Source: Elusimicrobiota bacterium
GTDB lineage: Bacteria > Elusimicrobiota > Elusimicrobia > Elusimicrobiales > UBA9959
Length of the DNA: 64,000 bases
Direction: 5' to 3'
Assembly: GCA_019135865.1 (NCBI GenBank)
Contig: JAGVVD010000037.1
Span: forward strand, 12,771-76,770
Both the position numbers and the translations under genes were made by a program. How positions within the stretch are numbered: position 1 is the stretch's first letter; each line of letters opens with the position of its first letter. The notes below the pieces were generated by a model. It saw only the letters and a list, made by a program, of their open reading frames with translations, was not told the DNA's origin and searched no databases. This document shows, piece by piece, positions 200 to 24,260 of this stretch.

Positions 200-493
200 T
201 CAGGCCTTTACGGAGATCTTGGCCAGGTACTTGTCCAGGTCGTCGGCGGGGCGCGGTATCACGTGCACGGCGACCAGCTCGCCCACTTTCTGGGCGGCGG
301 CCGAACCGGCCTCTACGGCGGCGCGCACGGCGCCGACCTCGCCCACGCAGAGCGTGGTCACGTAGCCGGAGCCGATCTTCTCGTAGCCCAGCAGCCGCAC
401 CTTGGCGGCCTTGGCCATGGCGTCCGAGGCCTCTATCATGCCGATAAAGCCCTTCGTCTCTATCATTCCCAGCGCTTCTTTAGGTTCAGACAT
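200..493 (-). CDS. BMC-H shell protein (single BMC/Pfam00936-type domain, PduA/CcmK-like hexamer)
   Basis: Translation [58 protein letters not shown]...VHVIPRP is a canonical BMC domain. I moved the start from 514 to ATG 493, which has GGAG a few nt upstream. Confidence 0.93.
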
Positions 494-1497: not shown

Positions 1498-1502
1498 GGC
1501 GA

Positions 1503-8816: not shown

Positions 8817-9812
8817 TTAGTACTGTCCTTTGGCGGCCTCGCCGCCGGAAACTATGGCTATGCTGGCGCTGGTGCCCAGGCGGGTCGCGCCGGCCTTCAC
8901 CATCGCCGCGGCGACCTCGGCGTTCTTGATGCCGCCGGAGGCCTTCACTCCCATCTCGGGCCCGACGGTCTGGCGCATCAGCGCGACATCCTCTACGGTG
9001 GCCCCGCCGGAGCCGAAACCGGTCGAGGTCTTGACGAAGTCGGCCTGGGCCTGCTTGGACATGCGGCAGGCGCGGACCTTCTCGTCGTTGGTGAGGTACG
9101 AGGTCTCGAGGATGACCTTGAGGCACTTGCCGCGCGTGGCCTCGCGCACGGCCCGGATGTCGTCGAGGACCAGCGCGTCGTTGCCGGACTTGAGCGCGCC
9201 GATGTTTATGACCATGTCGATCTCGTCGGCGCCGTTGGCGATGGCGTCGCGGGCCTCGATGGCCTTGACGGTCGGGGTGGTGGAACCCAGCGGGAAGCCG
9301 ATGACGGTGCAGACCATCACGCCGCTGCCGCGCAGCAGGCGGGAGGCCATGGCAACGTAGCCGGGATTCACGCAGACGCTGGCGAACTTGTGCTTGCGCG
9401 CTTCCTCGCAGAGCTTGCCTATCTCCTCCTGCGTGGCGTTGGCCTTGAGCAGGGTGTGGTCTATCATGCCGGCGATGGAGGAACTGCCCGCTCCGGGGTT
9501 GCAGAAGCTGACGCGCTCCACGCCCATGCCTTTGACCTGCTGGGCGGTGAAATTGTTCAGCGGGTTGCAGCTCTGGCAGGTGCCGGAACAGGTGTTCTCC
9601 TCGAGCCGGCAGTCCGGGTTGCGCTTAGGCGCCGGGGACTGGGGACCGGTCTGTCCGCCGACGAGCGGGTTAGAGAAGACCTTGCCGGCGCTGCCCATGG
9701 TGACGCGGCCTTCCGGGGGAAGGCTCTTCTGGCCCCGCGGGGCGGCGTCCTCTTTCGCCCGCATTATCCTGGCGACTTCCTCGGCTATCTTCCTTATGTC
9801 TTCTTCACGCAT
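8817..9812 (-). CDS. deoC: Deoxyribose-phosphate aldolase (DERA) with a ~110-aa N-terminal extension (encapsulation-peptide-like helix plus Cys-rich linker)
   Basis: Core [38 protein letters not shown]...[12 protein letters not shown]...[17 protein letters not shown]...LKVILET...[39 protein letters not shown]...GATRLGTSA is a short-type DERA, and both catalytic Lys contexts are present. The N-terminus is [19 protein letters not shown]. The start overlaps the upstream BMC-P gene by 8 nt. Confidence 0.93.
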
Positions 9813-10104: not shown

Positions 10105-10108
10105 AAAT

Positions 10109-10405
10109 TCAGATAAGTTTCTTGCCGTCTATGATGCCCACTATGGCCGCGTCCACGGGCGGCAGGTTAGACTTCGAGGAAGTCTCTCCCTCCCAGCCCT
10201 CGAAGGCCACTATGGCCTCGCGCGAGGCCACGAAGAAGACCGTCTCGCCGGCGCCGGCGCCGACGGTGTCGGCGGCCACCAGAGGGTCGCCGGAAGGGGC
10301 GTCGGTGACCCAGTCGAGCGGCTGCACCAGCAACAGCGTCTTCCGGTCCATGCCGCAGCACTGCTGCGAGCAGAACACCCTTCCGATGACCTTGGCCTGC
10401 TTCAT
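10109..10405 (-). CDS. BMC-P vertex protein (EutN/CcmL family), paralog 2
   Basis: MKQAKVIGRVFCSQQCCGMDRKTLLLVQPLD...AADTVGAGAGETVFFVASREA...VDAAIVGIIDG. It shows the EutN/CcmL pattern but is more divergent, with an inserted WEGETSSKSN segment. Confidence 0.85.
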   Translation of the reverse strand: MKQAKVIGRVFCSQQCCGMDRKTLLLVQPLDWVTDAPSGDPLVAADTVGAGAGETVFFVASREAIVAFEGWEGETSSKSNLPPVDAAIVGIIDGKKLI

Positions 10406-10412
10406 TCAAATC

Positions 10413-10859
10413 CTAGCAGCAGCGCTGCTCTATCGCCGTGATCTTGTCCAGCCGCTTCTGGTACTTCCCCCCCTCGAAAGGGGTGGAGAGCCAGACGCGC
10501 AGCATCTCCTGCAGCGCCAGCTCGCCGTGGGTCTTGCCGCCCAGGCAGAGCACGTTGCAGTCCTCGTGCGCCGCCGCGAAGCGCGCCGAGATGACGTCGT
10601 AGGCGGCCACGGCCCTGATGCCGTGTATCTTGTTGGCGGCCAGCGGCATGGCGCCGTTGAAGCCGTCTATGAGAACGCCCTTCTCGAACTCGTGCTTGCG
10701 CACGGCGTCGCCGACGAGCATCGCTATATCCGGGAAATCGACCGACTCCGTGGAATAGCAGCCGAAATCCGTCACCTCGTGGCCGAGGGTCTGGAGGTAT
10801 TTCTTGAGCTTCTCCTTGGCCTCGAAGCCCGCGTGGTCGGCGCCTATGACGATCTTCAT
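10413..10859 (-). CDS. RpiB/LacAB-family sugar-phosphate isomerase with non-canonical active-site residues
   Basis: MKIVIGADHAGFEAKEKL...VLIDGFNGAMPLAANKIHGIRAVAAYD...AHEDCNVLCLGGK...FEGGKYQKRLDKITAIEQ aligns along its length with RpiB as I recall it. Where E. coli RpiB has ICGTGVGISIAANK, this protein has IDGFNGAMPLAANK. Confidence 0.85.
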   Translation of the reverse strand: MKIVIGADHAGFEAKEKLKKYLQTLGHEVTDFGCYSTESVDFPDIAMLVGDAVRKHEFEKGVLIDGFNGAMPLAANKIHGIRAVAAYDVISARFAAAHEDCNVLCLGGKTHGELALQEMLRVWLSTPFEGGKYQKRLDKITAIEQRCC

Positions 10860-10867
10860 ATCAGCTC

Positions 10868-11416
10868 CTATATCGCGCCCGCGAGATGTTCGTGCGCGTT
10901 CGGGATGACTATGCGGCTCACCACCGCGTCCTCGCCTACCGCCTTCACGCCCGCGGCCACGGCCGTGCGCACCGCGCCGACCTCGCCGTTGACGGTGAAG
11001 TAGCCCTTGCCGCCTATGCCCTTGCCGGTATTGACCTCGGCGACGTGGACGAAGGCCGCCTTGGCGGCCGCGTCGGCGGCGAACAGGGCGGGCAGCGCCT
11101 CTTTGGTCTCCACCATGCCGACGGCTTCCAGCGCGGCGGGCTTGACTTTCTTGTTGAGGGCGGCCAGCGCGCCCGCGTGGACATTGCGGATGATGTGGCG
11201 CGCGATAAGCGTATTGCCCGCGATCTCGGCGCCCTTGGAGAGCGAGGATTCCACCTCTCCGACGGGGCCGGCGATGACGATTATGTATTTGCCCTTGGAG
11301 ATGGCCTGGTGGAGTTTAGGCTCCACGCCGGCCGCCTTGCACATCGCGTCCAGCGCTTCGATGCCCTTGGCTATCGAGGAAGTTTCCATCATGCCTATCG
11401 AAATATTGGCCTGCAT
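10868..11416 (-). CDS. BMC-T shell protein (tandem BMC domains, PduT-like architecture, lacks the PduT cluster cysteine)
   Basis: Two BMC domains: IGMMETSSIAKGIEALDAMCKAA...KYIIVIAGPVGEVESSL and LEAVGMVETKEALPALFAADAAAKAA...GKGYFTVNGEVGAVRTAVAAG. Start moved to ATG 11416 (AAGGAG 6 nt upstream); the ORF track begins at 11473. The PduT ICPGK position reads ISKGK. Confidence 0.88.
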   Translation of the reverse strand: MQANISIGMMETSSIAKGIEALDAMCKAAGVEPKLHQAISKGKYIIVIAGPVGEVESSLSKGAEIAGNTLIARHIIRNVHAGALAALNKKVKPAALEAVGMVETKEALPALFAADAAAKAAFVHVAEVNTGKGIGGKGYFTVNGEVGAVRTAVAAGVKAVGEDAVVSRIVIPNAHEHLAGAI

Positions 11417-11439
11417 CTGTTTCTCCTTAAGAGTACGCC

Positions 11440-12864
11440 TTAAGCTATCCTGAGGTCGCCGACCACGCTGCACTGCAGCGGGCGGACGAAATGGCTGGTC
11501 TTGGTGATGCCGTCGCCGGTCGGGGTGCCGATGGACATCGAGGCGTAGCCCTCGCCCAGGCCCAGGCCGTGCAGCGTGCAGCCGTTCTTGACGAAGATGG
11601 AGCAGGCCATGCGCCGGCCCATCTTGGTCATGTTCTTCACATTGGTCGAGTACATCCCCGCGCTGTGATGGTTGTTGCCCTCGGCGCGGCGGGCCAGCTG
11701 TACCGCGGCGTCTATGTCGCGGGCCGCGGTCACAGGCAGCACCGGCATCAGCTGCTCGGCGTGGACCAGCGGGTGGTCGTTGGGCACCTCGGCCCAGAGC
11801 ACGCGTATATCGTCGGAGAGGTTCAGGCCGATGGACTTGGCTATAACGGAAGGATTCCTGCCGATGAAATCGCGGTTGATCCTGGGTTCGGGGCCGGGCT
11901 CCAGGATGATCAGCCGGGAAAGCTGGTCCATCTGCGCGCCGGTCAACTCATGGGCGCGGTGGTCCTTGCGCATCGCTTCCAGGAAGCGGGCCCGGGCGGC
12001 CTCCGTGACTATGACTTCCTTCTCGGCTATGCAGAGGACGTTATTGTCGAAACCGCAGCCGGTTATTATCTGCTCCGCGCAGTCCGGGAAGACAGCCGTC
12101 TCGTCGACGACGACCGGCGGGTTGCCGGGGCCGGCGGCTATGGTCTTGCAGGCCTTGCCGGCCGTCATGGCGACCTTCACTATCGCGGGGCCGCCGGTCA
12201 CCAGGTTCATATGCGTGTCCGGGTGGGAAAGCAGCTGCTTGGTGGCCTCCTGCGTCGGCTTGGCTATGGTCGAGACGAGGTTATGGGGCCCGCCGGCGGC
12301 GACTACGGCGGAGTCGAGCGTGCGCACCGCGTCGGCCACGCAGCCCTTGGCGGCCGGGTGCGGCGAGAAGACGGCGGCGTTGCCGGCAGAGAGTATACCG
12401 ATGGCGTTGCTGATGATGGTGGCGACGGGATTGGTGGAGGGCGTTATGGCGGCGACCACGCCGAAAGGCGCGTACTCGACGAGGGCCAGGCCCTTGTCGC
12501 CGGTATAGGCGACGGCGCGCAGGTCCTCGACGCCGGGCGTCTTGTCGGCGCAGACCAGGTTCTTGAGGACTTTGTCGGAGACGCGGCCCATGCCGGTCTC
12601 GGCCACGGCCATCTCCGCCCAGCGGCGGGCGTTGGCGCGGGAGACCTCGCGTATGGCGGAGATCATCTTCTCGCGGGCTTCGAGGCCCATGTCCTGGAAG
12701 CCGGGCTGGGCGCGGTTGGCGGCGGCCACGGCCTGGTCGACGGTATCGAAGACCGGCCCGCCGGAGACGGAGGCGGAAGAAGCGGACGGCGCCGGGCCGG
12801 CGGCTTCGAGGTTCTTCACCACCTCCGCGACTATCTTCCTGAGTTCTTCCTCGTTTATGGACAT
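11440..12864 (-). CDS. CoA-acylating aldehyde dehydrogenase (PduP/EutE-like) with an N-terminal encapsulation-peptide-like helix
   Basis: 474 aa. ALDH fold with the catalytic-Cys context GFDNNVLCIAEKE and a PduP/EutE-like length and organisation. The N-terminus MSINEEELRKIVAEVVKNLEAAG is followed by a Pro/Ser/Ala linker. Confidence 0.9.
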   Translation of the reverse strand: MSINEEELRKIVAEVVKNLEAAGPAPSASSASVSGGPVFDTVDQAVAAANRAQPGFQDMGLEAREKMISAIREVSRANARRWAEMAVAETGMGRVSDKVLKNLVCADKTPGVEDLRAVAYTGDKGLALVEYAPFGVVAAITPSTNPVATIISNAIGILSAGNAAVFSPHPAAKGCVADAVRTLDSAVVAAGGPHNLVSTIAKPTQEATKQLLSHPDTHMNLVTGGPAIVKVAMTAGKACKTIAAGPGNPPVVVDETAVFPDCAEQIITGCGFDNNVLCIAEKEVIVTEAARARFLEAMRKDHRAHELTGAQMDQLSRLIILEPGPEPRINRDFIGRNPSVIAKSIGLNLSDDIRVLWAEVPNDHPLVHAEQLMPVLPVTAARDIDAAVQLARRAEGNNHHSAGMYSTNVKNMTKMGRRMACSIFVKNGCTLHGLGLGEGYASMSIGTPTGDGITKTSHFVRPLQCSVVGDLRIA

Positions 12865-12874
12865 AACGGCTCCG

Positions 12875-13180
12875 TCACTGCATCTTGTTCACGGACTTCT
12901 TGAAGACTATCTTCCCTTCTTTCTCTATGGTGTCGACGATGGCGAAGATGGTGCAGTCGACCGGGGTGCTCTCGGTCTTGGAGGTCTGGCGGGCCGAGGA
13001 GCCCTGCACGAGCAGGACCAGTTCGCCCATGCCCGCGCCGACCGAGTCGACGCCGACGAGCGGGTTGCCCTTGGGCTTGTCGTCCAGGCCCACGGGCTGG
13101 ACCATCAGGAGCTTGGTGCCGACGAGTTTGTCGTCCTTGCGGGTGCAGACTACGTTGCCCACTACTCTGGCGAATAACAT
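12875..13180 (-). CDS. BMC-P vertex protein (EutN/CcmL family), paralog 3
   Basis: MLFARVVGNVVCTRKDDKLVGTKLLMVQPVG...GVDSVGAGMGELVLLVQGSSAR...VDCTIFAIVDTIE. Start moved to ATG 13180 (GGAGGA upstream); the ORF-track start at 13270 would read through a repeat element. Confidence 0.88.
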   Translation of the reverse strand: MLFARVVGNVVCTRKDDKLVGTKLLMVQPVGLDDKPKGNPLVGVDSVGAGMGELVLLVQGSSARQTSKTESTPVDCTIFAIVDTIEKEGKIVFKKSVNKMQ

Positions 13181-13214
13181 ATATCGGTCCTCCGTGAGGG
13201 GCTTCCGGCCGTCG

Positions 13215-13362
13215 AGAACTATGCGGGGTCCTGTCGGCGATCCGCCCGTAAAAAACGCGGTCTCGCACACCGTGCTCGCCGCTCCCTCTCTCGCCGCTCG
13301 CGCTTACGCAAGCTCGCGGCTCCGGAAGGTTTTTCCGGGCGGATCCGCCGCCACCCCCGCTA
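13215..13362 (+). repeat. Intergenic structured repeat, A-type unit (copy 1)
   Basis: gagaactatgcggggtcctgtcggcgatccgcccgtaaaaaacgcggtctcgcacaccgtgctcgcc...cgctcgcgcttacgcaagctcgcggctccggaaggtttttccgggcggatccgccgccaccccc. By eye it is ~85% identical to 27048-27190. The 5-prime arm (13236-13254) can pair with the 3-prime arm (13330-13349). It lies between BMC-H (13406) and BMC-P (13180). Confidence 0.85.
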
Positions 13363-13405
13363 TCCCCTTATCCGGCCGGAAGCGGGGGCGGCGCAGGGAT
13401 CCGTT

Positions 13406-13690
13406 TTATTTCTTCCTGATGTCGGCTATCGGGAGCTTGCCTTCGAGGTCGCCGTGCGGCTGCGGTATGACGTGCACGCTGACCAGTTCGCCGACCTTCT
13501 GGGCGGCGGCGGCGCCGGAGTCGCAGGCGGCGCGGCAGGCGGCGACTTCGCCCCTGAAAAGTATGGTGACCAGGCCGGAGCCGATCTTCTCGTAGGCGAC
13601 CAGCTTGACGTTGGCGGCCTTGACGGCGGCGTCGGCCGCTTCCACGCAGGCGACGAGGCCCTTGGTCTCTATCATTCCGAGTGCTTCCAT
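13406..13690 (-). CDS. BMC-H shell protein (single BMC domain hexamer), second copy
   Basis: [79 protein letters not shown] is a canonical BMC domain. AGGAGGA lies upstream of the ATG. Confidence 0.93.
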
Positions 13691-13744
13691 TGTGTCCTCC
13701 TGTGAACGGGTACCGCGAAATCGGGATACCGCTTATTGAATCAT

Positions 13745-13781
13745 TATATATTTTTATGCCACCCGCAAGGGTCCATGGGCT
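13745..13781 (-). promoter_or_regulatory. Candidate internal promoter (AT-rich box with TATAAT) upstream of the second BMC-H gene
   Basis: The minus strand reads cccTTGCGGgtggcataaaaataTATAATgattcaataagc. TATAAT corresponds to plus 13753-13758, ~63 nt upstream of ATG 13690. The spacing to TTGCGG is only 14 nt, so the -35 assignment is weak. Confidence 0.35.
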
Positions 13782-13840
13782 CCGTATCGCATGGGCCCGG
13801 GAGGCGGGCCCCGGGAACGGGCGCTCTTTACGGGGAAGGT

Positions 13841-14443
13841 TCAGGGCCCGGGAGGAGGCGGCCTTTTGATCGCGCCCGTCTTGGCGGCTTTCCCCGCCGG
13901 CAGGGCCTTGACTTCCACCCCCACCCCGAAAGCCCTGGCGCAGGACTCCGGCCCGGAGTCGCCGCGCCGCAGGATATCCCGGAGAACGAGCGTGCGCGCG
14001 TCCAGCCAGCCATGCAGGACTTCGCCCTTGCTGTCGCCATAGCCGGAAGTTATCCGGCTCAGGTAGCAAAAAAGAGTGTCCGCGTTCGTGGAGACCGAGA
14101 CCATGTAGAGCGAATGACCCGAGGCGCATTGAGCCGGGATGCTCCTGGTGCAGGAGGTGGCCCCCCACGGCTTGACCAGCTCGTAGACGAAACGGCTGCT
14201 GTCGGGAGACCAGGCCAGCGCCGCGAACCTCATTCCCCCGAACCCCGGCGTCAGCGGCCTGGCGGAATCCCGGCCGACGAGGTGCATCGCCCCGGCGCCC
14301 GGCCAGGCCGCCCAGTTGCCGTCGGGCGACACATAGCAGGCCTCCGCGCCGGGAGGGCAGGAGACCGGCTCCGGAACGCCGGCGGCGGATGAAAGAACGG
14401 AGCAGGCCAGGATGCAGGCGGATATTCGGAAAAGGCTGCGCAT
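13841..14443 (-). CDS. Hypothetical secreted protein or lipoprotein embedded in the BMC locus
   Basis: MRSLFRISACILACSVLSSAAG is a signal or lipobox-like N-terminus (start moved to ATG 14443). Composition is normal, with short PD40/WD40-like motifs (SPDGNWAA, WSPDSSRFVY), unlike the Arg/Gly/Pro-rich junk in the overlapping alternative frames. No family recognised. Confidence 0.55.
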   Translation of the reverse strand: MRSLFRISACILACSVLSSAAGVPEPVSCPPGAEACYVSPDGNWAAWPGAGAMHLVGRDSARPLTPGFGGMRFAALAWSPDSSRFVYELVKPWGATSCTRSIPAQCASGHSLYMVSVSTNADTLFCYLSRITSGYGDSKGEVLHGWLDARTLVLRDILRRGDSGPESCARAFGVGVEVKALPAGKAAKTGAIKRPPPPGP

Positions 14444-14483
14444 CGGTTCCCTCCCGGGCGCTGTCATGAGGCGGTCCGCCGCC

Positions 14484-15122
14484 TCAGACGATATAGGCCG
14501 GGTCGTTGTTGCGCAACCCGGCGGCGTTGGCTTCCTCGGTGTCGAGGTGGAGTTCCAGCGCGTACTTGTCGGAAACCCGGCAGAGCACGGCCTCGTAGAC
14601 GGCGGCGCGGTCGCCGCGGCCGCAGCGGATGCGCACTTCCATGCCGTCCTTTATCTTCATCTTTTCCGCGTCCTTGGGGTGGAAATGTATGTGGCGCTTG
14701 GAAAGTATCACGCCGCGGTCGATGGTCACGGAGCCTTTGGGGCCGATGAGCTTCACGCCGGGCGAATTGTCGAGCTTGCCGGAATCCCGTATGGGAGGAT
14801 CGATGCCCAGGGTCCTGGCGTCGGCCAGCGAGACCTCGATCTGGGTGTAGGGCCGGTAGGGGCCGATGAGGCGGACGTTCTTGAGCGAGCCCTTGGGACC
14901 TTCGACGGTGATGAGCTCGTTGCAGGCGTAAAAGCCGGGCTGGCGGAGCTGGCGGAACTGGCAGGGTTCGGCGTCGGCGCCGAACAGGGCCTTGAAATGC
15001 TCTTTGGTGATGTGGAAGTGGCGGTTGGAGATGCCGACGGGCACGGGCATGGAGCTGCGCTCCTGCCTGAGTTTCAGGTCCTCGATTATTTCCTTCACCA
15101 GTTTCTCGTCCATAATATACAC
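14484..15122 (-). CDS. pduL: Phosphate acyltransferase PduL (phosphotransacylase of BMC metabolosomes) with an N-terminal encapsulation-peptide-like helix
   Basis: Two PduL repeats with His motifs (VGISNRHFHITKEHFKALFG and VILSKRHIHFHPKDAEKM), ...GPKGSLKNVRLIGP...QIEVSLADARTLGI..., and LELHLDTEEANAAGL. N-terminus MYIMDEKLVKEIIEDLKL. Confidence 0.92.
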   Translation of the reverse strand: MYIMDEKLVKEIIEDLKLRQERSSMPVPVGISNRHFHITKEHFKALFGADAEPCQFRQLRQPGFYACNELITVEGPKGSLKNVRLIGPYRPYTQIEVSLADARTLGIDPPIRDSGKLDNSPGVKLIGPKGSVTIDRGVILSKRHIHFHPKDAEKMKIKDGMEVRIRCGRGDRAAVYEAVLCRVSDKYALELHLDTEEANAAGLRNNDPAYIV

Positions 15123-15145
15123 CTTCTGTTGCCCCCCTTAAGGGA

Positions 15146-15299
15146 ACAGCCGGGGGAGGCGGGGCGGCAGCTTAGCAAAACCTTCACGGAGGCCGGAGCA
15201 TCGTAAGCGCGGAGGCCGAGTGAGGAGGGCCGAGCGCTATGCGCGAGAGCCCGTGTTTTGCGGGCTGCCGCCCCGACATGCCCCCGGCATAGTTATTCC
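15146..15299 (-). repeat. Intergenic structured repeat, B-type unit (copy 2), in inverse orientation relative to A-type
   Basis: 154 nt that differ from 27225-27378 at only 3 positions by my count. An internal long-range stem is possible (ggcggcagc at ~15163-15171 with gctgccgcc at ~15265-15273). The reverse complement is ~65% similar to the A-type units. Confidence 0.9.
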
Positions 15300-15300
15300 G

Positions 15301-15388
15301 ATCGCCGGACCGAGGTCGGAGCGCGAGCACGGTGTGCGAGCGGCGTTTTTTCGTGGTGAGCCCCCGCCGGCCCCCGGCATAGTTCTCC
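15301..15388 (-). repeat. Intergenic repeat, truncated A-type half unit in inverse orientation (copy 3)
   Basis: The reverse complement, ggagaactatgccgggggccggcgggggctcaccacgaaaaaacgccgctcgcacaccgtgctcgcgctccgacctcgg, matches the 5-prime half of the A-type unit at 13215. It ends 5 nt from the tpiA stop codon. Confidence 0.75.
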
Positions 15389-15393
15389 TTACC

Positions 15394-16170
15394 CTACTTC
15401 GCCAGCACGGGCTGGAAATGTATCACGCGCAGGAACTTGTCGGCCTTGAGGCTCTCGCCCCCGACCAGCGCGCCGTCTATATCGGGCTGCGCCATCAGCT
15501 CGTCCACGTTATCGGCCTTCACCGAGCCGCCGTAGAGTATCCGCACGGCCGCGGCGAAGTCCCTGCCGTAAAGCCTTTCCATCTGCTTGCGCACGAAGGT
15601 GTGGGCGTCCTGCGCCTGCTCGGGGGTGGCGGTCTTGCCGGTGCCTATCGCCCAGACGGGCTCGTAGGCGATGACGACCTTGGCGGCGTCGGCCGCGGGG
15701 ATGCCGGCGTAGGCGCCGGTCAGCTGGGTCTCGAGCACGCGGTAGGTCCGCTGGGACTCGCGCTCCTCCAGCGTCTCGCCGATGCAGAGCACCGGCAGCA
15801 GGCGCGCCTTGAGGGCGGCCTTGACCTTCTTGTTTATCACCTCGTCGGTCTCGAGGAAGATCTTGCGGCGCTCGCTGTGGCCGACGATGGCGTGCGAGCA
15901 GCCGGCGTCGAGCAGCTGCGACGGGGCGACCGCGCCGGTGAAAGCGCCTTTCTCCTCCCAGCAGACGTCCTGCGACGAGAGGAATATCCTGGAGCCGCCC
16001 AGGGCGGCCTTTACGGCGTGCAGGCCGGTGAACGACGGGGCCAGCAGCACGTCGTGCTTCAGGTCCGGGTCCAGGCCCTTGTTTATGGCGGCGGCCAGAT
16101 CGGCGGCCTCCTTCGCGGTCATGTGCATCTTCCAGTTGCCGGCGATAAGGGGTCTGCGGTTCGGGTTCAT
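15394..16170 (-). CDS. tpiA: Triosephosphate isomerase
   Basis: PLIAGNWKMH, VGHSERR and IAYEPVWAIGTGKTATPEQA are the canonical TIM catalytic motifs. 258 aa, with GAGGAG upstream of the ATG. Confidence 0.95.
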   Translation of the reverse strand: MNPNRRPLIAGNWKMHMTAKEAADLAAAINKGLDPDLKHDVLLAPSFTGLHAVKAALGGSRIFLSSQDVCWEEKGAFTGAVAPSQLLDAGCSHAIVGHSERRKIFLETDEVINKKVKAALKARLLPVLCIGETLEERESQRTYRVLETQLTGAYAGIPAADAAKVVIAYEPVWAIGTGKTATPEQAQDAHTFVRKQMERLYGRDFAAAVRILYGGSVKADNVDELMAQPDIDGALVGGESLKADKFLRVIHFQPVLAK

Positions 16171-16186
16171 TTCGGGTCTCCTCGTT

Positions 16187-16744
16187 TCAGATCAACTCGT
16201 TCAAAAGTTCTTTGCGCGGCTGCGGTATGACGACCTTCTCGACCAGCAGCCCGCGGCGCGCCACCACGGCGGCGCCCGCCTCCACGGCCGTCCCGGCCGC
16301 GGCCACGCTGCCGGTCAGCGTCACGAACGCCTTGCCGCCCAGCGCCATCGCCAGGCGTATCTCGATGAGCCGCACGTCGGCGGCCTTGACCGCGGCGTCG
16401 GCCGCTTCTATCAGCGCCGAGACCGAGAAAGCCTCTATAACGCCCAGGGATTCCAGCTCGCCGGCCGGGCCTGTACCCTCGATGGCCGGGAAGACCTGCG
16501 GGTGTATGTTCGGGATGACGAACTGGTCCACCAGCGCGTGCGCCGCCTTCGAGGCGCCCGCTTCGACGGCGGCGTTGACCGCGCCCACCTCGCCCGAGAC
16601 CAGTATCACGTACTTGCCGGGACAGATGGAGCGCGAGACCAGGATCCGCACGTCGGAAGTCTTGAGCATCGCGTCGGCCGTCTCGAGCCCCTTCGCTATG
16701 CTCGAAAGTTCCACTCCGCCTATGGCGTTAAGGTTGTTGGCCAT
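16187..16744 (-). CDS. BMC-T shell protein, PduT-like (tandem BMC domains, retains the [4Fe-4S]-ligand cysteine context)
   Basis: IGGVELSSIAKGLETADAMLKTSDVRILVSRSICPGKYVILVSGEVGAV... closely parallels Salmonella PduT as I recall it ([46 protein letters not shown]). Cys41 codon at 16622-16624. The second domain is [25 protein letters not shown]...GGKAFVTLTGSVAAAGTAVEAG. 185 aa, against ~184 aa for PduT. Confidence 0.88.
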   Translation of the reverse strand: MANNLNAIGGVELSSIAKGLETADAMLKTSDVRILVSRSICPGKYVILVSGEVGAVNAAVEAGASKAAHALVDQFVIPNIHPQVFPAIEGTGPAGELESLGVIEAFSVSALIEAADAAVKAADVRLIEIRLAMALGGKAFVTLTGSVAAAGTAVEAGAAVVARRGLLVEKVVIPQPRKELLNELI

Positions 16745-16745
16745 G

Positions 16746-18092
16746 TCAGTCCGCCTTGATCTCCACGTAAATATGGTTCACCTTCGTCACCACGCCGTCC
16801 ACGCTGGCGTGCACGGGGCAGCCCAGCTTGTCGGCCGGCAGGTCGCCCACGACCTCCCCCCGCCGTACGCGCTGTCCCTCTTTCACGGAAGGGGAGCAGG
16901 GCGCGCCTATATGCTGCGACATCTGTATGCGCACCGAACCGGGCCGGTACTTGAGGTCCTGATAGGGGGCGTCCGTGAGATGATCCTCGAGGCCCAGCCT
17001 TTTTACCAGCCGCGAGACCGGGACCTTGCGGAAATCGCGCAGCGGATGGGCCTGGTTGGACGAGCGGCCGGCCAGCGAAGAGTTCTTGAGCCCGGTCTTC
17101 AGCTCCCGCAGGTCGCCCTTGGCGGCGACGCAGGCCTCGCGCGGATGCAGGTTCTCGGGGCAGGAGTAGAGGCTGCAGAGAGAACATTCGCAGCAGGCCA
17201 GGGCGTATTCGCTGTGCAGTTTCTTATCGGGACCGCCGGAAAAAAGCAGGCTGCGCATGACGCGGTGAGGCTGCACCTGGTGGCCCAGCAGGTAGCGCGG
17301 GCAGAACTCGGTGCAGAAAGAGCACTGGTCGCAGGCCGACTTGCCGATGCGCGAGAACACCGGCCGCGGCTGGGCCTTCTTCTGTATCAGGGGATGGTCC
17401 TTGGGCAGCACTATGAGCCCGCCGGAGGCCCTGTTCACTATGGTCGAGAAATCGGGGATGACCTTGCCCATCATGGGGCCGCCGTCTATGCCGGCGGGGT
17501 CCTTGACCGTCGCGCCGCCGCACAGTTCCACGGCCTCGGCGTAGGTCACGCCTATCGGCACCTTGAAAGTGGACGGCTGCTTCACCGCTCCGGCCACCGT
17601 TATCCATTTCTCGGTCACGGGCGTCTCTTCCGCGCGGGCGGCGTTGTAAAGGGTCTCGACATTGCTGACCACGCAGCCCACGTCGAGCGGTATGCCGCCG
17701 GCGGGAACGATCCTGCCGGTCAGTTCGGCGACCAGGCACTGCTCGTCGCCCGCGGGATAATAATCGCCCATGGGCCCGACGGAGATATTGCGGCGGCTCC
17801 GTGCTATCTCCTCCAGCCGCTTCACCAGCTTTTCGTGCTTGCGCTTGATGCCGAAAATGCCGGCGGAGGCGCCGACTGCCCGCATCATCAGCTCCAGGCC
17901 GTCGAAAACTTTTTCCGCGTGCAGCTCCAGCAGCTTCTGGTCCTTTTTCAGCAGCGGCTCGCATTCGGCCGCGTTGACCAGCACGAACTCCGCTTTCCCC
18001 CCCGCCTTGACATAGGCGGGAAAGCCGGCGCCGCCGGCCCCTACCACTCCGGCGGCGCGCAGCTTGGCGGCGAATTCCTGCTGGAAGGACAT
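16746..18092 (-). CDS. PduS/RnfC-like NADH-binding flavo-iron-sulfur oxidoreductase
   Basis: AAGVVGAGGAGFPAYVK...VLVNAAECEPLL is the Complex1_51K/RnfC-type nucleotide-binding region. There are two ferredoxin-type Cys clusters (CDQCSFCTEFCP and CCECSLCSLYSCP). The C-terminal segment QHIGAPCSPSVKEGQRVRRGEVVG...PVHASVDGVV resembles the RnfC barrel-sandwich domain. It starts 1 nt after the PduT-like gene ends. Confidence 0.85.
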   Translation of the reverse strand: MSFQQEFAAKLRAAGVVGAGGAGFPAYVKAGGKAEFVLVNAAECEPLLKKDQKLLELHAEKVFDGLELMMRAVGASAGIFGIKRKHEKLVKRLEEIARSRRNISVGPMGDYYPAGDEQCLVAELTGRIVPAGGIPLDVGCVVSNVETLYNAARAEETPVTEKWITVAGAVKQPSTFKVPIGVTYAEAVELCGGATVKDPAGIDGGPMMGKVIPDFSTIVNRASGGLIVLPKDHPLIQKKAQPRPVFSRIGKSACDQCSFCTEFCPRYLLGHQVQPHRVMRSLLFSGGPDKKLHSEYALACCECSLCSLYSCPENLHPREACVAAKGDLRELKTGLKNSSLAGRSSNQAHPLRDFRKVPVSRLVKRLGLEDHLTDAPYQDLKYRPGSVRIQMSQHIGAPCSPSVKEGQRVRRGEVVGDLPADKLGCPVHASVDGVVTKVNHIYVEIKAD

Positions 18093-18097
18093 CCTTT

Positions 18098-19327
18098 TTA
18101 TCTGGCGGCGACCATGCGCTTCTTGACGGCGGCGGCGAGGCGCTTGATGCCTTCGTCTATCTTTTCCGGGGAGGCGAAGGAGAAGTTCAGGCGCATCGTG
18201 TTCTTGCCGGACCCGTCGGTATGGAAAGCGGAGCCTATGACATAGGCCACGTTCTCCTTGAGCGCGTCCTGGAACATATCGTCGGCGCTCATCTGCTCGG
18301 GCAGGCGCACCCAGAGGAAGAGGCCGCCCTCGGGGTTGGTCCAGGTGACGCCTTCGGGCATGTTCTTCTCGAGCGCGGCTATCATCGTGTTCTTCTTGAT
18401 CCGGTAATCCTTCTTGATTATCTCGATATGCTTCTCGAAATAGCCGGTGCGCAGGAACTCGGCGGCTATGAGCTGGTTGAGGCTGGAGGTGCAGAGGTCC
18501 AGCGACTGCTTGAGTATCTCCAGCTTCTTGATGATCTGCTCGTGGGCCAGTATTATCCCCAGGCGCAGGCCCGGAGCGAAGGTCTTGGAGAGGGTGAACA
18601 GCGAGACGATATTGTCGGTCTTCCTGGTCTCCTTGTCGAGGCGGTAGAGCATCTTCGGCTCCTTGCCCTCGAAGCGGATCTGCCGGTAAGGCGAATCCTC
18701 TATGACGGCGACATTGTACTTGTCGGAAAGTTCGATGACCTTGGCCCGCTTCTCCTCGGAGAGCGTAACGCCGCTGGGGTTCTGGAAGTCGGGCACCAGG
18801 TAGACGAACTTGTAATGCTCGTCCTGCGATCTGAGCCAGGAGAGCTTCTCCTCCAGCTCCTCCGTGGAGACGCCGTCGTCCTCCAGTTTCACGCCGATGA
18901 ACTCGGCGCCGTAGGACTTGAAGACCTGCAGCGCTCCCATGTAGCTGGGCTTCTCGACCAGGACCGGATCGGCGGCGTCGATGAAAAGGCGGCCGACCAT
19001 GTCCAGCGCCTGCTGGCTGGCCGTGGTGATGATGAGGTTCTCCGGCCTGGCGTCTATCCCTTCGTACTTTTTCAGGAATTTAACGAACTCTTCTTTGAGC
19101 TCCGGCAGGCCGTCGGTCGGACCGTACTGGAGGGCGACCTTCCCCTTCTTGGCCATTATCTCCTTGACGGCATCCGCGACGAAATCGTAGGGAAAGTGAT
19201 CGGGCGACGGCAGGCCGCCGGCGAAAGAGATGATACCGGGCTGGTTGGTGGTCTTGAGCAGTTCCCTGATAACGGACGCTTTGGTGCGGCGGGGTGCGGT
19301 TGCGATGTTCTTGGCTATGTCTATCAT
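18098..19327 (-). CDS. PLP-dependent aminotransferase, class I/II (2-aminoadipate/aromatic aminotransferase-like)
   Basis: 409 aa. ...ISFAGGLPSPDHFP..., QYGPTDGLPELKEEF, SLFTLSKTFAPGLRLG (PLP-Lys context) and NPEGGLFLWVRLP. Its stop lies 5 nt before the PduS-like start. GC is visibly lower and the protein is Lys-rich. Confidence 0.85.
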   Translation of the reverse strand: MIDIAKNIATAPRRTKASVIRELLKTTNQPGIISFAGGLPSPDHFPYDFVADAVKEIMAKKGKVALQYGPTDGLPELKEEFVKFLKKYEGIDARPENLIITTASQQALDMVGRLFIDAADPVLVEKPSYMGALQVFKSYGAEFIGVKLEDDGVSTEELEEKLSWLRSQDEHYKFVYLVPDFQNPSGVTLSEEKRAKVIELSDKYNVAVIEDSPYRQIRFEGKEPKMLYRLDKETRKTDNIVSLFTLSKTFAPGLRLGIILAHEQIIKKLEILKQSLDLCTSSLNQLIAAEFLRTGYFEKHIEIIKKDYRIKKNTMIAALEKNMPEGVTWTNPEGGLFLWVRLPEQMSADDMFQDALKENVAYVIGSAFHTDGSGKNTMRLNFSFASPEKIDEGIKRLAAAVKKRMVAAR

Positions 19328-19417
19328 TGCGGCCTCCGGCTTTATATTCGGCGGACCGGTCCGGGCGTCCGCCGCGAGACTTATCAGGGAATAATCTACT
19401 TATTTATAGAGCCCCGT

Positions 19418-20710
19418 TCAAGGAGAATCTGGCGCGCCCGGAGCAGTCCCCAGCGCGGCCGAAAGATAGTCGGCGTTCTCGCGGTAGAACGCCCTCTTCT
19501 CCGGGTCCCGCGCCGAGGAAGCCAGGCGGGAGAAGCTTTTCAGGGCCTTCAGGTAGGCAGAGCGCCGGACCGGGAGCAGGTCCGCCGGGAAAGGCCTGCG
19601 CGTCCTGGCGGAGGCTTCCTCCAGGGAACGCAGCAGCAGGGCCAGGTCCGACACCGGCAGCCCGGAGCCTTTGTCCCGGACATGGGCCGCGGCCTCCAGT
19701 ATCGCCAGCGCCCCCTTGGTGCGCAGTTCCCTGGCGGCCGGGGACCGTTCCCCGGGAGGCAGGGTCTCCTCCGCCTGGGCCAGGCAGTCCAGGGCGAGGA
19801 TATAATCCCCGGCCTCCAGACCGGCGGAACCCAGCGTCAACAGCGCTTCCGCGCTGAAAGAAGGCCAGCGCGAGGAGTAGAAATTCTCCAGGAAGCGGTC
19901 GTAGGCGGCCTTTTCCTTCGCGGACTCCGCCGCCGCCCTCCGGCCGGCCTCGTACTCCGCGTCGTCGCCGGTGGCCAGCGCGGCGATCCTGCCCCCTTCG
20001 GCGCGCGCGCGGGCCCGCGCCTCGGCCCCGGCGAGTTCCGTGTAGCCCATGGCTTCGTCGCGCAGGTAGCGCGACCTGATGTATTCCCGGTACCTGTCCG
20101 CGTCCAGGGAAAGTTCTATGTAGCCGGCCAGGGAATGGGAGGTGTAGACGTCCTGCTCCTCCCCCCGCAGGAAAGCCCGCAGCAGGCCCGGTGAATCGGC
20201 CAGCTTCTCGTGGAAATACAGGTCCTCCGTGAAATACGCCTCGTATTCGAACTCCACGGGATTGGCGTCGGCCGCGCCGGCGCGGTAGCGCGGGTAGAGA
20301 TAGGACTGGAGCGCGTGGACCAGCTCGTGCAGGAAGAGCGCGTCGGCCCTTCCGACGAATTCCGCCCTGGCGGGTTTTCCCGCGTTGAGGATCTCGATCA
20401 TGCGCGAATCGCGGTAACCTTTGACCGCGAAGAACTCCTGCATATGCCGGGTGTTGAAGTATACGGCGTTCCCGACCGGGTCGTACCAGGCCAGCCGCTC
20501 GGCGGGAGCGCGGCGGAGCAGGAGGCGCAGTCCTTCGGACTCGGGCCTGGCGTCCAGCCTGGAAAAGAACTCGCGGCCCGACGGCCGGGCCTCTATGACC
20601 GCCCGGAACTCGCGCAGCAGCTTCGCGCTCAGCGGGTCGTCGTACCGGTAGGCGGCGGCGGGCCGGCAGAGGGAAAAAAGGGCCAGCAGGGCGAGGAGTG
20701 TCTGCCGCAT
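19418..20710 (-). CDS. Hypothetical secreted protein with an HExxH zinc-metallopeptidase-like motif
   Basis: Signal peptide MRQTLLALLALFSLCRPAAA (start moved to ATG 20710). Single motif LFLHELVHALQSY, with an alpha-helical, TPR-like C-terminal half. No family recognised. Confidence 0.55.
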   Translation of the reverse strand: MRQTLLALLALFSLCRPAAAYRYDDPLSAKLLREFRAVIEARPSGREFFSRLDARPESEGLRLLLRRAPAERLAWYDPVGNAVYFNTRHMQEFFAVKGYRDSRMIEILNAGKPARAEFVGRADALFLHELVHALQSYLYPRYRAGAADANPVEFEYEAYFTEDLYFHEKLADSPGLLRAFLRGEEQDVYTSHSLAGYIELSLDADRYREYIRSRYLRDEAMGYTELAGAEARARARAEGGRIAALATGDDAEYEAGRRAAAESAKEKAAYDRFLENFYSSRWPSFSAEALLTLGSAGLEAGDYILALDCLAQAEETLPPGERSPAARELRTKGALAILEAAAHVRDKGSGLPVSDLALLLRSLEEASARTRRPFPADLLPVRRSAYLKALKSFSRLASSARDPEKRAFYRENADYLSAALGTAPGAPDSP

Positions 20711-20808
20711 CCGGATATTATATAGGATTTGACAAGGCCGGGATAATAACATAAATTGGCTCCTGCGGCGGTAGCGCCGCCGATTTGAAAGTTGACAGGG
20801 AGGCGATC

Positions 20809-21021
20809 ATGTCCGACAGGAGCGGAGAAGTAGTTTCCTCTTTCCTTCTGGGCGCGGTGCTCGGCGCGGTGGCCGGGGTGCTGCTGGCCCCCTCTTCCGG
20901 CAAAGTGACGCGGGAGAAGCTCGGCGACTGGCTCGACGAGACGGCCGAGGGCGCCAAGGAGAAGCTCGAAAAGATGGAGGAGGAGATAAAGAAGCGCAAG
21001 GAGCAGCTGCTCAAGGATTGA
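20809..21021 (+). CDS. YtxH-like small membrane-anchored protein
   Basis: MSDRSGEVVSSFLLGAVLGAVAGVLLAPSSGKVTREKL...EGAKEKLEKMEEEIKKRKEQL is the typical YtxH pattern: a Gly-zipper TM segment, APxSG and a charged helix. GGGAGG lies upstream of ATG 20809. Confidence 0.75.
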   Translation: MSDRSGEVVSSFLLGAVLGAVAGVLLAPSSGKVTREKLGDWLDETAEGAKEKLEKMEEEIKKRKEQLLKD

Positions 21022-21039
21022 GCCGCGGCTCTCCGCGCG

Positions 21040-21072
21040 AAAAGGCCCGGCGCCGGAGCGCCGGGCTTTTTT
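21040..21072. terminator. Bidirectional intrinsic terminator between convergent genes
   Basis: Stem gcccggcg (21045-21052) pairs with cgccgggc (21059-21066) across the loop ccggag. It is followed by tttttt (21067-21072) and preceded by aaaa (21040-21043). Confidence 0.8.
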
Positions 21073-21084
21073 CATTGCCGGGGC

Positions 21085-22686
21085 TCAGAACTCGGAGGCG
21101 GAGGAGAAGATGCGGAAATCCAGGCGCGGAAAAAGGGCGTGGTCCCGCTCCAGCGCGGCGAGGTTCCGCTCGTCCACGCGGCGCTCCAGGACCTGCGTCA
21201 GCAGTTCCTCGGCGTTGCGGCAATGCCCGCGCACGCGCTCGCCGGCGTAGCGGGAGTGCGAATCGATGTAGAGCAGGAAAGGCCAGTCGGAGGCCTGCGA
21301 CAGCAGCACCTCGCGCGCGGCCTGGTTCAGCGCGCGGCTGGAGACGTGCGTCAGGTCGTGGCTGCGGAAGCGGTTCGCCATCTCCACCATCCGTTCGGTC
21401 GCGCCCAGTATCGGCGCGTAGATGGAATCGTTGGCCTGGTTGAGCCAGGGGTCGAAGTAGCCCTTCTCCCCCCACGAGGAGAGGTCGGGCTCCAGCTCGG
21501 GGGGCTCCTGGCAGGAATTCAGGTACTCGGAAGGGGTCACCAGCTGCAGCGGCAGACGGTCCTGCCGTATGCGGCGTATGACCGATTCCAGGAAGGCCGG
21601 ACCCTCGAACCACCAATGGCCGAACAGTTCGGCGTCGTAACAGCCGGTGATGACCGGCCTGTTCCCGCCGTTGGCGGCGCTGATGGCCTCCACCTGCGCC
21701 AGCCGCTTGGCCAGGAAATCCGCCGCGTGTTCCTCGACGCGGGCGAGCGCGGCGTCGGGATCGTAAAGTTCCTTCTTCGCCAGGTCCACCTCGCCGGTGA
21801 TGCGGTGGTATTTCAGCCCCAGCGGCCGGCGCTGGCCGCCCAGCCAGGGGTTCAGATACCCTTCCTCCCCGTCGTAGCCGAGGTCGCGGTAGAACTCGCG
21901 GTAGACCGGGTCGCCCGGGTAGCCGTAGCGGGAGCTCCAGACCTCGCGCGAAGATTCGCAGTCCCGGCCGAAGAGGGAGAGCCCGTTGGCCGTCCGGTAG
22001 GGAGAGTAGACCCCGCGCGGGGCGGACGGCGAACCGAACTGTACGCCGTGGGACTCCAGGAAGACGAAATTAAAGCCCGAGAGCTTCAGATAGGTCTGCA
22101 GGCGCCTGTCGTAGGCGCATTCCGGCAGCCAGAAACCCGAGGATTTGCGGTTGAAGCGGTCCTCGTAATCCTCCGCCGCCACGGCTATCTGCGCGCGCAG
22201 CGCCTCCGGCCGCGGCAGCAGGGGCAGCACCGCGTGCGTGGCCGAGGTCGTGATGATCTCTATGTGGCCGGCGGCCTGGAACTGCTTCAGCGGCGTGATG
22301 ATGTCGCCGCTGTACTTGTGCAGCAGTTCGGCGGCCTGCTCGTAGACCCGCTGATAGAGCCGCACGGTCTTCGCCAGCGGCTCCCGGTCCCCGGCGCGCT
22401 CGGCCTCTTTCTCCAGCAGCGCCAGCCGCGACTCCACGTAGGAGATCAGTTTCTTTTCCAGGTTCTCGTTCTCGAGCATCGCGCCCAGCGTGGGCGAGAT
22501 GGAAAGAGTGAGGCCGGCCTTGATGCCGTCCTTCGCCAGGCTTTCCAGCATCGTTATCAGCGGGATATAGGTCTCTACCACCCCTTCGAAGAACCAGTTC
22601 TCCTCCAGGAAATCCGGGCTGGAGGGGTGGTTCACGTACGGGAGATGCGCGTGCAGGACCAGGACGAGGGAGCCCTTGGCGCTCAT
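21085..22686 (-). CDS. GH57-family glycoside hydrolase, probable alpha-1,4-glucan branching enzyme
   Basis: MSAKGSLVLVLHAHLPYVNHP...FLEENWFFEGVVETYIPLI... is a GH57 N-terminal signature. 533 aa with a helical C-terminal region. Start moved to ATG 22686, because the ORF-track N-terminal 99 aa are Arg-rich junk and this ATG overlaps the upstream gene stop (ATGA). Confidence 0.85.
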   Translation of the reverse strand: MSAKGSLVLVLHAHLPYVNHPSSPDFLEENWFFEGVVETYIPLITMLESLAKDGIKAGLTLSISPTLGAMLENENLEKKLISYVESRLALLEKEAERAGDREPLAKTVRLYQRVYEQAAELLHKYSGDIITPLKQFQAAGHIEIITTSATHAVLPLLPRPEALRAQIAVAAEDYEDRFNRKSSGFWLPECAYDRRLQTYLKLSGFNFVFLESHGVQFGSPSAPRGVYSPYRTANGLSLFGRDCESSREVWSSRYGYPGDPVYREFYRDLGYDGEEGYLNPWLGGQRRPLGLKYHRITGEVDLAKKELYDPDAALARVEEHAADFLAKRLAQVEAISAANGGNRPVITGCYDAELFGHWWFEGPAFLESVIRRIRQDRLPLQLVTPSEYLNSCQEPPELEPDLSSWGEKGYFDPWLNQANDSIYAPILGATERMVEMANRFRSHDLTHVSSRALNQAAREVLLSQASDWPFLLYIDSHSRYAGERVRGHCRNAEELLTQVLERRVDERNLAALERDHALFPRLDFRIFSSASEF

Positions 22687-23184: not shown

Positions 23185-24225
23185 ATGATGAAAGCGATAG
23201 TCAAAGCCTCCCGTTCCGCCGGGGCCAGGCTCGCGCAGGTGCCGATACCGCAGATAGCCCCCGACGAGCTGCTGGTGCGCGTGCACAGCGCCTCGCTCTC
23301 CCCGGCCGACCTGGCCGCCTGGTCCTGGAAAGGCTGGATCAAGGAGCGCATGAAGCTCCCCCGGGTGCTCGGCCGGGAGTTCTGCGGCGAGGTGGTGGAG
23401 ATAGGCGAACAGGCCAGGGGCTTCGCCAAGGGAGATTTCGTCTCGGCCGAATCCCACGTTTTCTGCGGCCAGTGCTACCAGTGCCGCAACGACCAGCGCC
23501 ACGTCTGCTCCAACCTGAAGGTGCTGGGCCTGGACGTGGACGGCGGCCTGGCCGAGTACGCCCGCGTCCCGGCGCGCTGCGCCTGGAAGCACAACGACGA
23601 GACGCTCAAGGAGATGGGCGCCCTGCTGGAACCCTTCGGCAACGCCGTGCACGCGGTGCAGGTCGAGGACGTGGTGGGCAGGTCGGTCCTGGTCACCAGC
23701 TGCTGCCCCCAGGGCCTCTTCGCCATAGCCGTGGCCAAGGCCGGCGGCGCCAAGCCGGTGATAGCCCTGGAAAGTTCGGCCTACCGCCGTTCGCTGGCTA
23801 AGAAGATGGGGGCCGACACCATCATAGACCCGTCGGCCAAAGGCGCGCTGGAGAAAGTGCTCAAGGCCGCCGGCGGCCGCGGCGGCGTGGACGCCGTGCT
23901 GGAGATGTCCGGCGAGCACCGCGCGATAGACCTGGGGCTCAAGGCGCTGCGCCCCGGCGGCCGCTTCACGGCCTTCGGCATCCCCGAGACCGCCCCGTCG
24001 CTGGACTACGCCGGCGGCCTGGCCTTCAAGGGCGCGCGCCTCTACGGCATTTCCGGCCGCGAGATCTTCGCGACCTGGTACCGCGTGGAGAACCTGCTCC
24101 GGTCGGGCGCCGTCGACATCCGGCCGGTCGTCACGCACACGCTGCCTTTCGCCGACCACCGCAAAGCTTTCGCCATGATACTTTCCCGGGAGAAGAAATG
24201 CGGGAAGGTGATACTCAAACCGTGA
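23185..24225 (+). CDS. L-threonine 3-dehydrogenase homolog (MDR family) with degenerate catalytic-zinc and NAD-binding motifs
   Basis: Collinear with E. coli Tdh as I recall it (EPFGNAVHAV, GREIFATWYRVENLLRSG, THTLPF, GKVILKP). The structural-zinc Cys cluster CGQCYQCRNDQRHVC is present. However AICGTD reads SLSPAD, GHEY reads GREF and GAGPIG reads SCCPQG. AAGGAG lies upstream of the ATG. Confidence 0.8.
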   Translation: MMKAIVKASRSAGARLAQVPIPQIAPDELLVRVHSASLSPADLAAWSWKGWIKERMKLPRVLGREFCGEVVEIGEQARGFAKGDFVSAESHVFCGQCYQCRNDQRHVCSNLKVLGLDVDGGLAEYARVPARCAWKHNDETLKEMGALLEPFGNAVHAVQVEDVVGRSVLVTSCCPQGLFAIAVAKAGGAKPVIALESSAYRRSLAKKMGADTIIDPSAKGALEKVLKAAGGRGGVDAVLEMSGEHRAIDLGLKALRPGGRFTAFGIPETAPSLDYAGGLAFKGARLYGISGREIFATWYRVENLLRSGAVDIRPVVTHTLPFADHRKAFAMILSREKKCGKVILKP

Positions 24226-24260
24226 ACGGAGGACGCTCGCATATGCTCAAGGAGGGAACT

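Follow-up and report, generated by a model that had tools for sequence, protein, structure and literature searches.

The stretch of DNA analysed here (64,000 nucleotides of contig JAGVVD010000037.1 from an Elusimicrobiota bacterium, positions 12,771 to 76,770; hereafter the window) encodes on its minus strand, at 16187-18092, a PduS-like flavin and iron-sulphur protein beside a tandem-domain shell protein of a bacterial microcompartment (BMC). With a probability of about 0.8, we interpret these two proteins as a module that exports electrons from a sugar-phosphate-utilisation (SPU) microcompartment of an uncultured member of the Elusimicrobiaceae, formed by a metabolosome NADH dehydrogenase (MNdh) and its shell partner BMC-TSE. 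Electron export by this pair is supported by homology and context: the window provides the gene content and order, the domains, the conservation of cofactor residues, the homology to PduS, PduT and RnfC, and the absence of an alcohol dehydrogenase (ADH) around the locus. NADH oxidation, cluster reduction and complex formation would be expected by analogy with a homologous pair from the GRM1 organelle of Clostridium botulinum, for which the same model was proposed and tested earlier (Sutter et al., PNAS 2024, PMC11626177). That study, in which non-canonical PduS proteins were renamed MNdh and their partners BMC-TSE, combined activity assays, electron paramagnetic resonance (EPR), voltammetry and X-ray footprinting; EPR detected NADH-dependent reduction of the BMC-T cluster, voltammetry gave suitable potentials and footprinting revealed the complex (PMC11626177). 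The electron-export mechanism is therefore already known, having been published with experiments in 2024.

The gene for the PduS-like enzyme (16746..18092, minus strand; 448 amino acids) was assigned to MNdh from its Pfam domains, its match to RnfC structures and its identity to PduS. The initial annotation had described a protein of this length with a GAGGAGFP motif and two ferredoxin-type cysteine clusters, and translation and a regular-expression scan recovered each of these on the minus strand: the glycine-rich FMN/NADH-site motif at residues 18-25 (18018..18041), a first [4Fe-4S] motif, CDQCSFCTEFCP, with Cys254/257/260/264 (17298..17333), and a second, CCECSLCSLYSCP, with Cys300/303/306/311 and the spacing Cx2Cx2Cx4CP (17157..17195). 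A six-frame search by regular expression for Fe-S and CxxC...CxxC patterns returned only these two motifs and the zinc site of thymidine kinase, and hence no small ferredoxin or rubredoxin as a candidate external acceptor. Pfam identified Complex1_51K (PF01512) at residues 12-151 (E 1.2e-42), SLBB (PF10531) at 164-209, the 4Fe-4S dicluster domain Fer4_17 (PF13534) at 253-316 and RnfC_N (PF13375) at the C-terminus (384-444). The C-terminal location of PF13375, permuted relative to RnfC and NuoF, is the defining trait of MNdh (PMC11626177), and the 448-residue protein has both this feature and the four-domain order of the family.

Comparison with RnfC structures gave a match in two swapped pieces, query residues 6-318 corresponding to RnfC 122-421 and residues 382-439 to RnfC 27-84, indicating that the protein is circularly permuted relative to RnfC. 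Its score against the NCBIfam RnfC model (TIGR01945) was 223.9 bits, below the cut-off of 245.95. To survey the surroundings, 55 genes were called in the window by codon-position GC and nearly all were scanned against Pfam, about six short open reading frames (ORFs; 79-250 amino acids) remaining unscanned; no rnfABDEG genes were found among the scanned genes. Identity as RnfC was rejected because the domain order is permuted and rnf partner genes are missing.

The protein aligned with Salmonella PduS at 40% identity (E 2e-108), with all eight cluster cysteines in register. The first motif, CDQCSFCTEFCP, aligned with CEQCRLCTDLCP of PduS, and the spacing of the second is the same in the Salmonella protein. 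Across 85 MNdh sequences (the window and the related loci described below) all eight cluster cysteines were invariant (85/85) and each position of GAGGAGFP was retained in 74-84 sequences, such that both the cysteines and the FMN/NADH motifs expected of MNdh are present; the motifs NAAECEP and YPAGDE were also conserved. No encapsulation peptide was found on MNdh. Its closest database relatives all come from Elusimicrobia, the best genome match being 97% identical and deriving from a metagenome-assembled genome of an uncultured Elusimicrobiaceae.

Since the Salmonella homolog is annotated as 'cobalamin reductase PduS', the 40% identity also bears on another role, in which the 448-residue protein would regenerate B12 for an encapsulated B12 enzyme and the BMC-T cluster would feed electrons inward. 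We regard this as exceedingly improbable. Family scans of the window detected neither a B12-dependent diol or ethanolamine lyase nor a PduO/EutT adenosyltransferase, and cob genes were likewise missing. The signature enzyme of the locus, deoxyribose-5-phosphate aldolase (DERA), is a class I aldolase that needs no cofactor; the same counter-argument has been made for all loci outside the PDU and EUT types (PMC11626177). Because no B12-related gene is present, cobalamin reduction was rejected in favour of NADH oxidation by MNdh.

The partner gene (16187..16744, minus strand) encodes a PduT-like single-layer tandem shell protein of 185 amino acids with two PF00936 domains. As the initial annotation had reported, the two reading frames are separated by 1 nucleotide: the MNdh stop codon TGA occupies 16746-16748, one base follows and the shell protein begins with ATG at 16744. 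A pore-cysteine BMC-TS thus stands directly beside MNdh, in a locus that also encodes an aldehyde dehydrogenase (AldDH). Sequence matches in the PDB were led by the PduT-like structure 3nwg (E 2.5e-54) and by PduT itself (3pac, E 1.1e-46). An AlphaFold2 model of the monomer, built from 32 homologs, reached a mean pLDDT of 90.8, and its best structural matches were the same two entries (3nwg, TM 0.92; 3pac, TM 0.90), consistent with the single-layer BMC-TS fold.

Identity to Salmonella PduT was 43% over a gapless alignment. The initial annotation had likened SRSICPGKY in the first domain to the cluster-ligand context SKTICPGKF of PduT, and this was confirmed: Cys41 aligned with PduT Cys38, without gaps, in both PDB 3pac and the Salmonella sequence. 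Its codon, read directly, is TGT at 16622..16624, also as reported, and lies within CPGK, an instance of the first-domain CP(G/S)K motif characteristic of BMC-TSE. Cys41 is a predicted ligand of a [4Fe-4S] cluster in the pore. Loss of this residue among orthologs had been named beforehand as an observation that would speak against such a role; the pore cysteine was invariant in 32/32 database homologs. Judging from the gapless alignment to PduT crystal structures, the three Cys41 residues of a trimer would be expected to converge on its three-fold pore.

To place the pair in a wider context, we surveyed 84 related loci (±10 kb around MNdh) together with the window. A BMC-T gene lay within 200 nucleotides of the MNdh gene in 78 of 85 loci; three loci with enough flanking sequence had no BMC-T beside MNdh, and in one the BMC-T was 9 kb away. 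The pore cysteine was present in 78 of the 79 BMC-T proteins nearest MNdh, within C(P/S/A)GK(Y/F), and the remaining sequence was cut by a contig end. By contrast, it was missing from the second BMC-T of MNdh loci in every case (23/23), a difference between MNdh-adjacent and other BMC-T proteins that is likewise seen in the published survey (PMC11626177). There, MNdh was recorded in 2,172 of more than 7,000 BMC loci, with a BMC-T immediately adjacent in 97%, and the pore-cysteine motif was universal in MNdh-adjacent BMC-T proteins (PMC11626177). The 84-locus survey thus independently reproduces three published results: adjacency, conservation of the cysteine in the partner BMC-T, and its absence from the paralogous BMC-T. 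The pore motif of the relatives was often CSGK or CAGK, compared with the published CP(G/S)K. Among Planctomycetota, Ignavibacteriota, Bryobacterales, Omnitrophota and others (loci L036-L084 of our survey) the MNdh/BMC-T pair mostly stood alone, no further BMC gene being recognisable within ±10 kb; such lone pairs in distant phyla fit the 'satellite' occurrences described previously (PMC11626177).

About 30 Elusimicrobia loci in the survey shared the order aminotransferase, MNdh, BMC-T, triosephosphate isomerase (TIM), phosphotransacylase (PTAC), BMC-H, BMC-P, AldDH, BMC-T, RpiB, BMC-P, BMC-P, DERA and BMC-H, and in more than 20 of them the SPU gene order was identical. Despite this conserved arrangement of BMC genes, no ADH was detected within ±10 kb in these roughly 30 loci, 22 of which reach as far as DERA. 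A phmmer search with two iron-type ADH (Fe-ADH) probe sequences, first validated against Pfam, likewise gave no match across the 84 related loci (±10 kb), and three relatives (91%, 73% and 69% identity) whose surroundings were annotated with Pfam had no ADH over the same distance. In the window itself, the Fe-ADH of the canonical metabolosome core (PF00465) was not found among the called and Pfam-scanned genes. The statement in the initial annotation that no ADH lies in or next to the locus is essentially correct.

One footnote applies. The sole ADH-superfamily gene of the window is of the zinc type and lies on the other strand (23185-24225, plus), some 5 kb upstream with four genes in between. 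Its top NCBIfam matches were two L-threonine 3-dehydrogenase models (TIGR00692 at 359 bits, the other at 355 bits, both slightly under their cut-offs), and the protein spans the profile from end to end with no terminal extension. It overlaps kbl, encoding glycine C-acetyltransferase (NF005394, 481 bits, above cut-off), and we take the two genes (23185-25451, plus) for a tdh-kbl operon with no part in the organelle. Such a pair yields acetyl-CoA from threonine. A Tdh-like gene near the locus occurred only in the window and in the relative with 97% identity, with no synteny elsewhere. The Tdh-like gene was rejected as an ADH of the organelle on the grounds of its opposite strand, its distance of four genes, its lack of an extension and its lack of synteny.

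These observations bear on a further alternative, in which NAD+ is mainly recycled by other means, either by a packaged ADH encoded elsewhere or by exchange of NAD+ and NADH through larger pores, with MNdh and BMC-T serving an auxiliary or conditional function. Some published findings are compatible with it: both systems occur together in 1,725 loci, knock-outs of pduS or pduT in Salmonella merely slow growth (PMC11626177), Fe-ADH occurs in some SPU2, SPU4 and SPU6 loci (PMC11585597), and our view is limited to 64 kb. The conserved gene order of the Elusimicrobia loci, with no ADH nearby, argues against a dedicated packaged ADH, and the Tdh-like character of the only candidate near the pair points the same way. 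Furthermore, Pfam scans found no double-layer BMC-Tdp, the shell protein with a large gated pore, in the locus. We consider this alternative unlikely and favour electron export through MNdh and BMC-TSE as the route of NAD+ regeneration. The initial annotation had called such a solution to cofactor recycling unusual, a description that does not hold, since 361 MNdh loci lacking ADH have been published with SPU among the named types (PMC11626177). That SPU loci lack ADH and contain PduS was already observed in 2014 (Axen et al., PMC4207490), a PduS homolog occurs in every SPU subtype but SPU6, and MNdh has been cited as an alternative NAD+ recycler in the SPU paper (PMC11585597). A literature search joining microcompartment, deoxyribose-phosphate aldolase and RnfC gave no match.

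The remainder of the locus establishes the type of organelle. Following the gene order on the minus strand, with the pair at its head, TIM (15394..16170; PF00121, 2.1e-92; syntenic in the Elusimicrobia loci) is followed by a PduL-type phosphotransacylase (14484..15122; PF06130, 4.3e-69), whose domain starts at residue 28 behind an N-terminal amphipathic helix, a putative encapsulation peptide. After a 208-residue ORF (13841..14467) with a signal peptide and no assigned family come a BMC-H shell hexamer protein (13406..13690; PF00936), the first of three BMC-P pentamer proteins (12875..13180; PF03319) and the CoA-acylating AldDH (11440..12864; PF00171; NF011927, 564.5 bits, cut-off 403), which has an N-terminal helix resembling an encapsulation peptide. 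The second BMC-TS (10868..11416; two PF00936 domains) carries serine at the pore position (AISKGKY) and no cysteine.

Next is an RpiB-like protein (10413..10859; PF02502), in which alignment with five RpiB structures placed Asp65 at the position of the catalytic cysteine (Cys66 in E. coli), the same Cys to Asp substitution as has been reported for all ribose-5-phosphate isomerases of SPU loci (Dwyer et al. 2024, PMC11585597). Two further BMC-P genes (10109-10405 and 9805-10104; PF03319) complete the triplet, and DERA (8817..9812; TIGR00126, 296 bits, cut-off 117) has its domain starting at residue 113, preceded by a conserved N-terminal extension of about 110 residues, as expected of an SPU aldolase, in which an amphipathic helix and a linker come before the catalytic domain. 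A terminal BMC-H (200..493; PF00936), displaced according to the synteny comparison, ends the series. All of these genes lie on the minus strand. With AldDH, a BMC-P triplet, BMC-H and BMC-TS alongside the extended DERA and the substituted RpiB-like protein, the gene set is that of the SPU microcompartment described in 2014 (Axen), 2021 (Sutter) and 2024 (Dwyer), and, going by the published descriptions, its content (PTAC, triosephosphate isomerase, PduS and no BMC-Tdp) fits SPU1, SPU4 or SPU7.

Several further features surround this gene set. A class I/II aminotransferase gene (18098..19327, minus; PF00155) ends 5 nucleotides before the MNdh start and is found upstream of MNdh in the roughly 30 Elusimicrobia loci; its product has a MocR-like catalytic domain with no helix-turn-helix domain and no obvious encapsulation peptide. 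Beyond it lies a 444-residue protein (19418-20752, minus) with a signal peptide, an HELVH (HExxH) motif and no Pfam or NCBIfam match, and relatives carry a family-less protein of 424-430 residues in the same slot upstream of the aminotransferase. In relatives BMC-H directly follows DERA, whereas in the window about 8.3 kb of other genes intervene (616-8448, minus), encoding porin-like, 1188-residue IPT/TIG-repeat, 317-residue family-less and 800-residue Big_1/Peptidase_M15 proteins. Part of this stretch has 52-57% G+C against about 65%, suggesting an insertion. The SPU locus of Elusimicrobia is otherwise rigid, with points of interruption that differ between genomes: locus L001 has three glycosyltransferase genes (13542-16757) between PduL and BMC-H, where the window has the 208-residue ORF, and locus L004 has a Peptidase_S8 gene (12015-13349) between BMC-T and TIM. 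A promoter and terminator scan of 8000-21500 gave terminator-like sites at chance level and promoter-like sites that were uninformative for operon boundaries. Elsewhere in the window, a 166-residue fragment with a DUF772 transposase domain (40597-41097, plus) is flanked by a tolB-like gene and a thymidine kinase gene.

The AldDH, identified by Pfam and NCBIfam, is the source of NADH in the locus, and the route by which the electrons would leave can be outlined from the published model. The acylating AldDH would use CoA and NAD+ to turn acetaldehyde into acetyl-CoA, making NADH, and PduL would recycle the CoA. MNdh, presumably docked against the lumenal side of the BMC-T trimer, would oxidise NADH at its FMN site and hand the electrons on, via two [4Fe-4S] clusters of its own, to a third one held in the BMC-T pore by three Cys41 residues, and from this pore cluster they would reach what is presumably a soluble acceptor outside the shell. 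NAD+ would in this way be regenerated without ADH and without the loss of half of the aldehyde as alcohol. The proposal in the initial annotation, with the PduS-like enzyme oxidising NADH and electrons exiting through a cluster in the BMC-T pore, therefore gains support, as the pair has every sequence-level feature of the module and the model is the published one (PMC11626177). The mechanism gives the protein shell the character of a redox-separating barrier equipped with its own electron conduit, and it explains how aldehyde-oxidising organelles can work with no substrate wasted as alcohol.

A different geometry puts MNdh outside, on the cytosolic side of the shell protein, from where it would feed electrons inward; in a related variant Cys41 would serve pore gating or another metal and not a [4Fe-4S] relay. 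The concave outer face was the docking site in half of the published AlphaFold solutions for the complex, such that the lumenal position of MNdh rests on indirect arguments, and pore-cysteine mutants of PduT alter shell permeability (PMC11626177). However, the only redox enzyme predicted inside the organelle makes NADH, and electrons must then leave the lumen and not enter it. Purification of intact organelles brings MNdh homologs along, conservation in MNdh-linked BMC-T proteins is higher on the surface facing the lumen, and the cluster reduction by NADH seen by EPR in a homologous BMC-T argues against a non-cluster role for the cysteine (PMC11626177). We judge inward transfer or a non-relay Cys41 very improbable, and outward transfer through a pore cluster remains the preferred reading.

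In addition to the outer-face docking solutions, a few observations weigh against electron export by the window pair. No external acceptor (ferredoxin, flavodoxin or hydrogenase) is encoded in the window, and an ADH with an encapsulation peptide may lie elsewhere in the genome, of which 64 kb are visible. The BMC-T scored 128.7 bits against the PduT equivalog model TIGR02526, for which the cut-off is 250.3; the 185-residue protein is a PduT-like relative and not an equivalog of enterobacterial PduT. With MNdh also under the RnfC subfamily cut-off, both are relatives of the named proteins and not equivalogs, as expected for a distant member.

The extension of DERA contains a feature of its own. 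Within its N-terminal ~110 residues (~9480-9812, minus), a conserved cysteine-rich block that includes RVSF-C-NP follows the encapsulation helix and precedes the aldolase domain. CX3CX2C was present in the extension of 87 of 98 full-length database homologs, typically with five or six cysteines in the extension as a whole, and distant homologs have CPxC ... CHPxxxC in its place. The pattern suggests a metal or Fe-S site; the block has no mention in the text of the SPU paper (PMC11585597). One could imagine that the SPU organelle of Elusimicrobia depends wholly on electron export, in a genome devoid of ADH, and that the block (usually CX3CX2C plus one or two cysteines) binds a metal or Fe-S centre tied to the redox state of the organelle or to the MNdh/BMC-T relay, although we hold this combination to be decidedly unlikely. 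SPU loci, including those of Elusimicrobia, already feature in published surveys and the window adds one more clean example lacking ADH; its organelle, for which electron export may be the sole outlet, could also make a useful test case.

Compared with known systems, the window pair shares individual features with several. RnfC (PDB 7zc6_C and 9eri_C) matches MNdh in its FMN/NADH domain, SLBB domain, two 4Fe-4S clusters and barrel-sandwich domain (E 2e-49 for 7zc6_C), but the barrel-sandwich domain is C-terminal in MNdh and N-terminal in RnfC, and the partner of MNdh is a shell protein and not a membrane complex. In the Pdu system of Salmonella enterica, pduS and pduT are adjacent and in the same order as in the window, with the Fe-S cysteines and PduT Cys38 shared; there, however, pduS-pduT follows the ADH gene pduQ and serves a B12-dependent pathway, whereas the window has neither of these and an aminotransferase gene upstream instead. 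With described SPU loci (PMC4207490, PMC8217296, PMC11585597) the window shares the extended DERA, the RpiB-like protein with the Cys to Asp change, AldDH, PduL, TIM and the PduS homolog, as well as a BMC-P triplet and BMC-TS as its only BMC-T type, with no BMC-Tdp; this copy differs in the 208-residue ORF between PduL and BMC-H and in the surface-protein genes (~8.3 kb) that separate DERA from the last BMC-H. Relative to the MNdh/BMC-TSE pair of the C. botulinum GRM1 organelle (PMC11626177), the window differs in host phylum (Elusimicrobiota) and in organelle type (SPU), and while its own pore motif is CPGK, its relatives have C(P/S/A)GK against the published CP(G/S)K. In architecture and motifs the two are nonetheless alike, sharing the permuted four-domain order, the two 4Fe-4S motifs, an adjacent pore-cysteine BMC-T, an AldDH and a locus lacking ADH, and the function proposed for them is identical.

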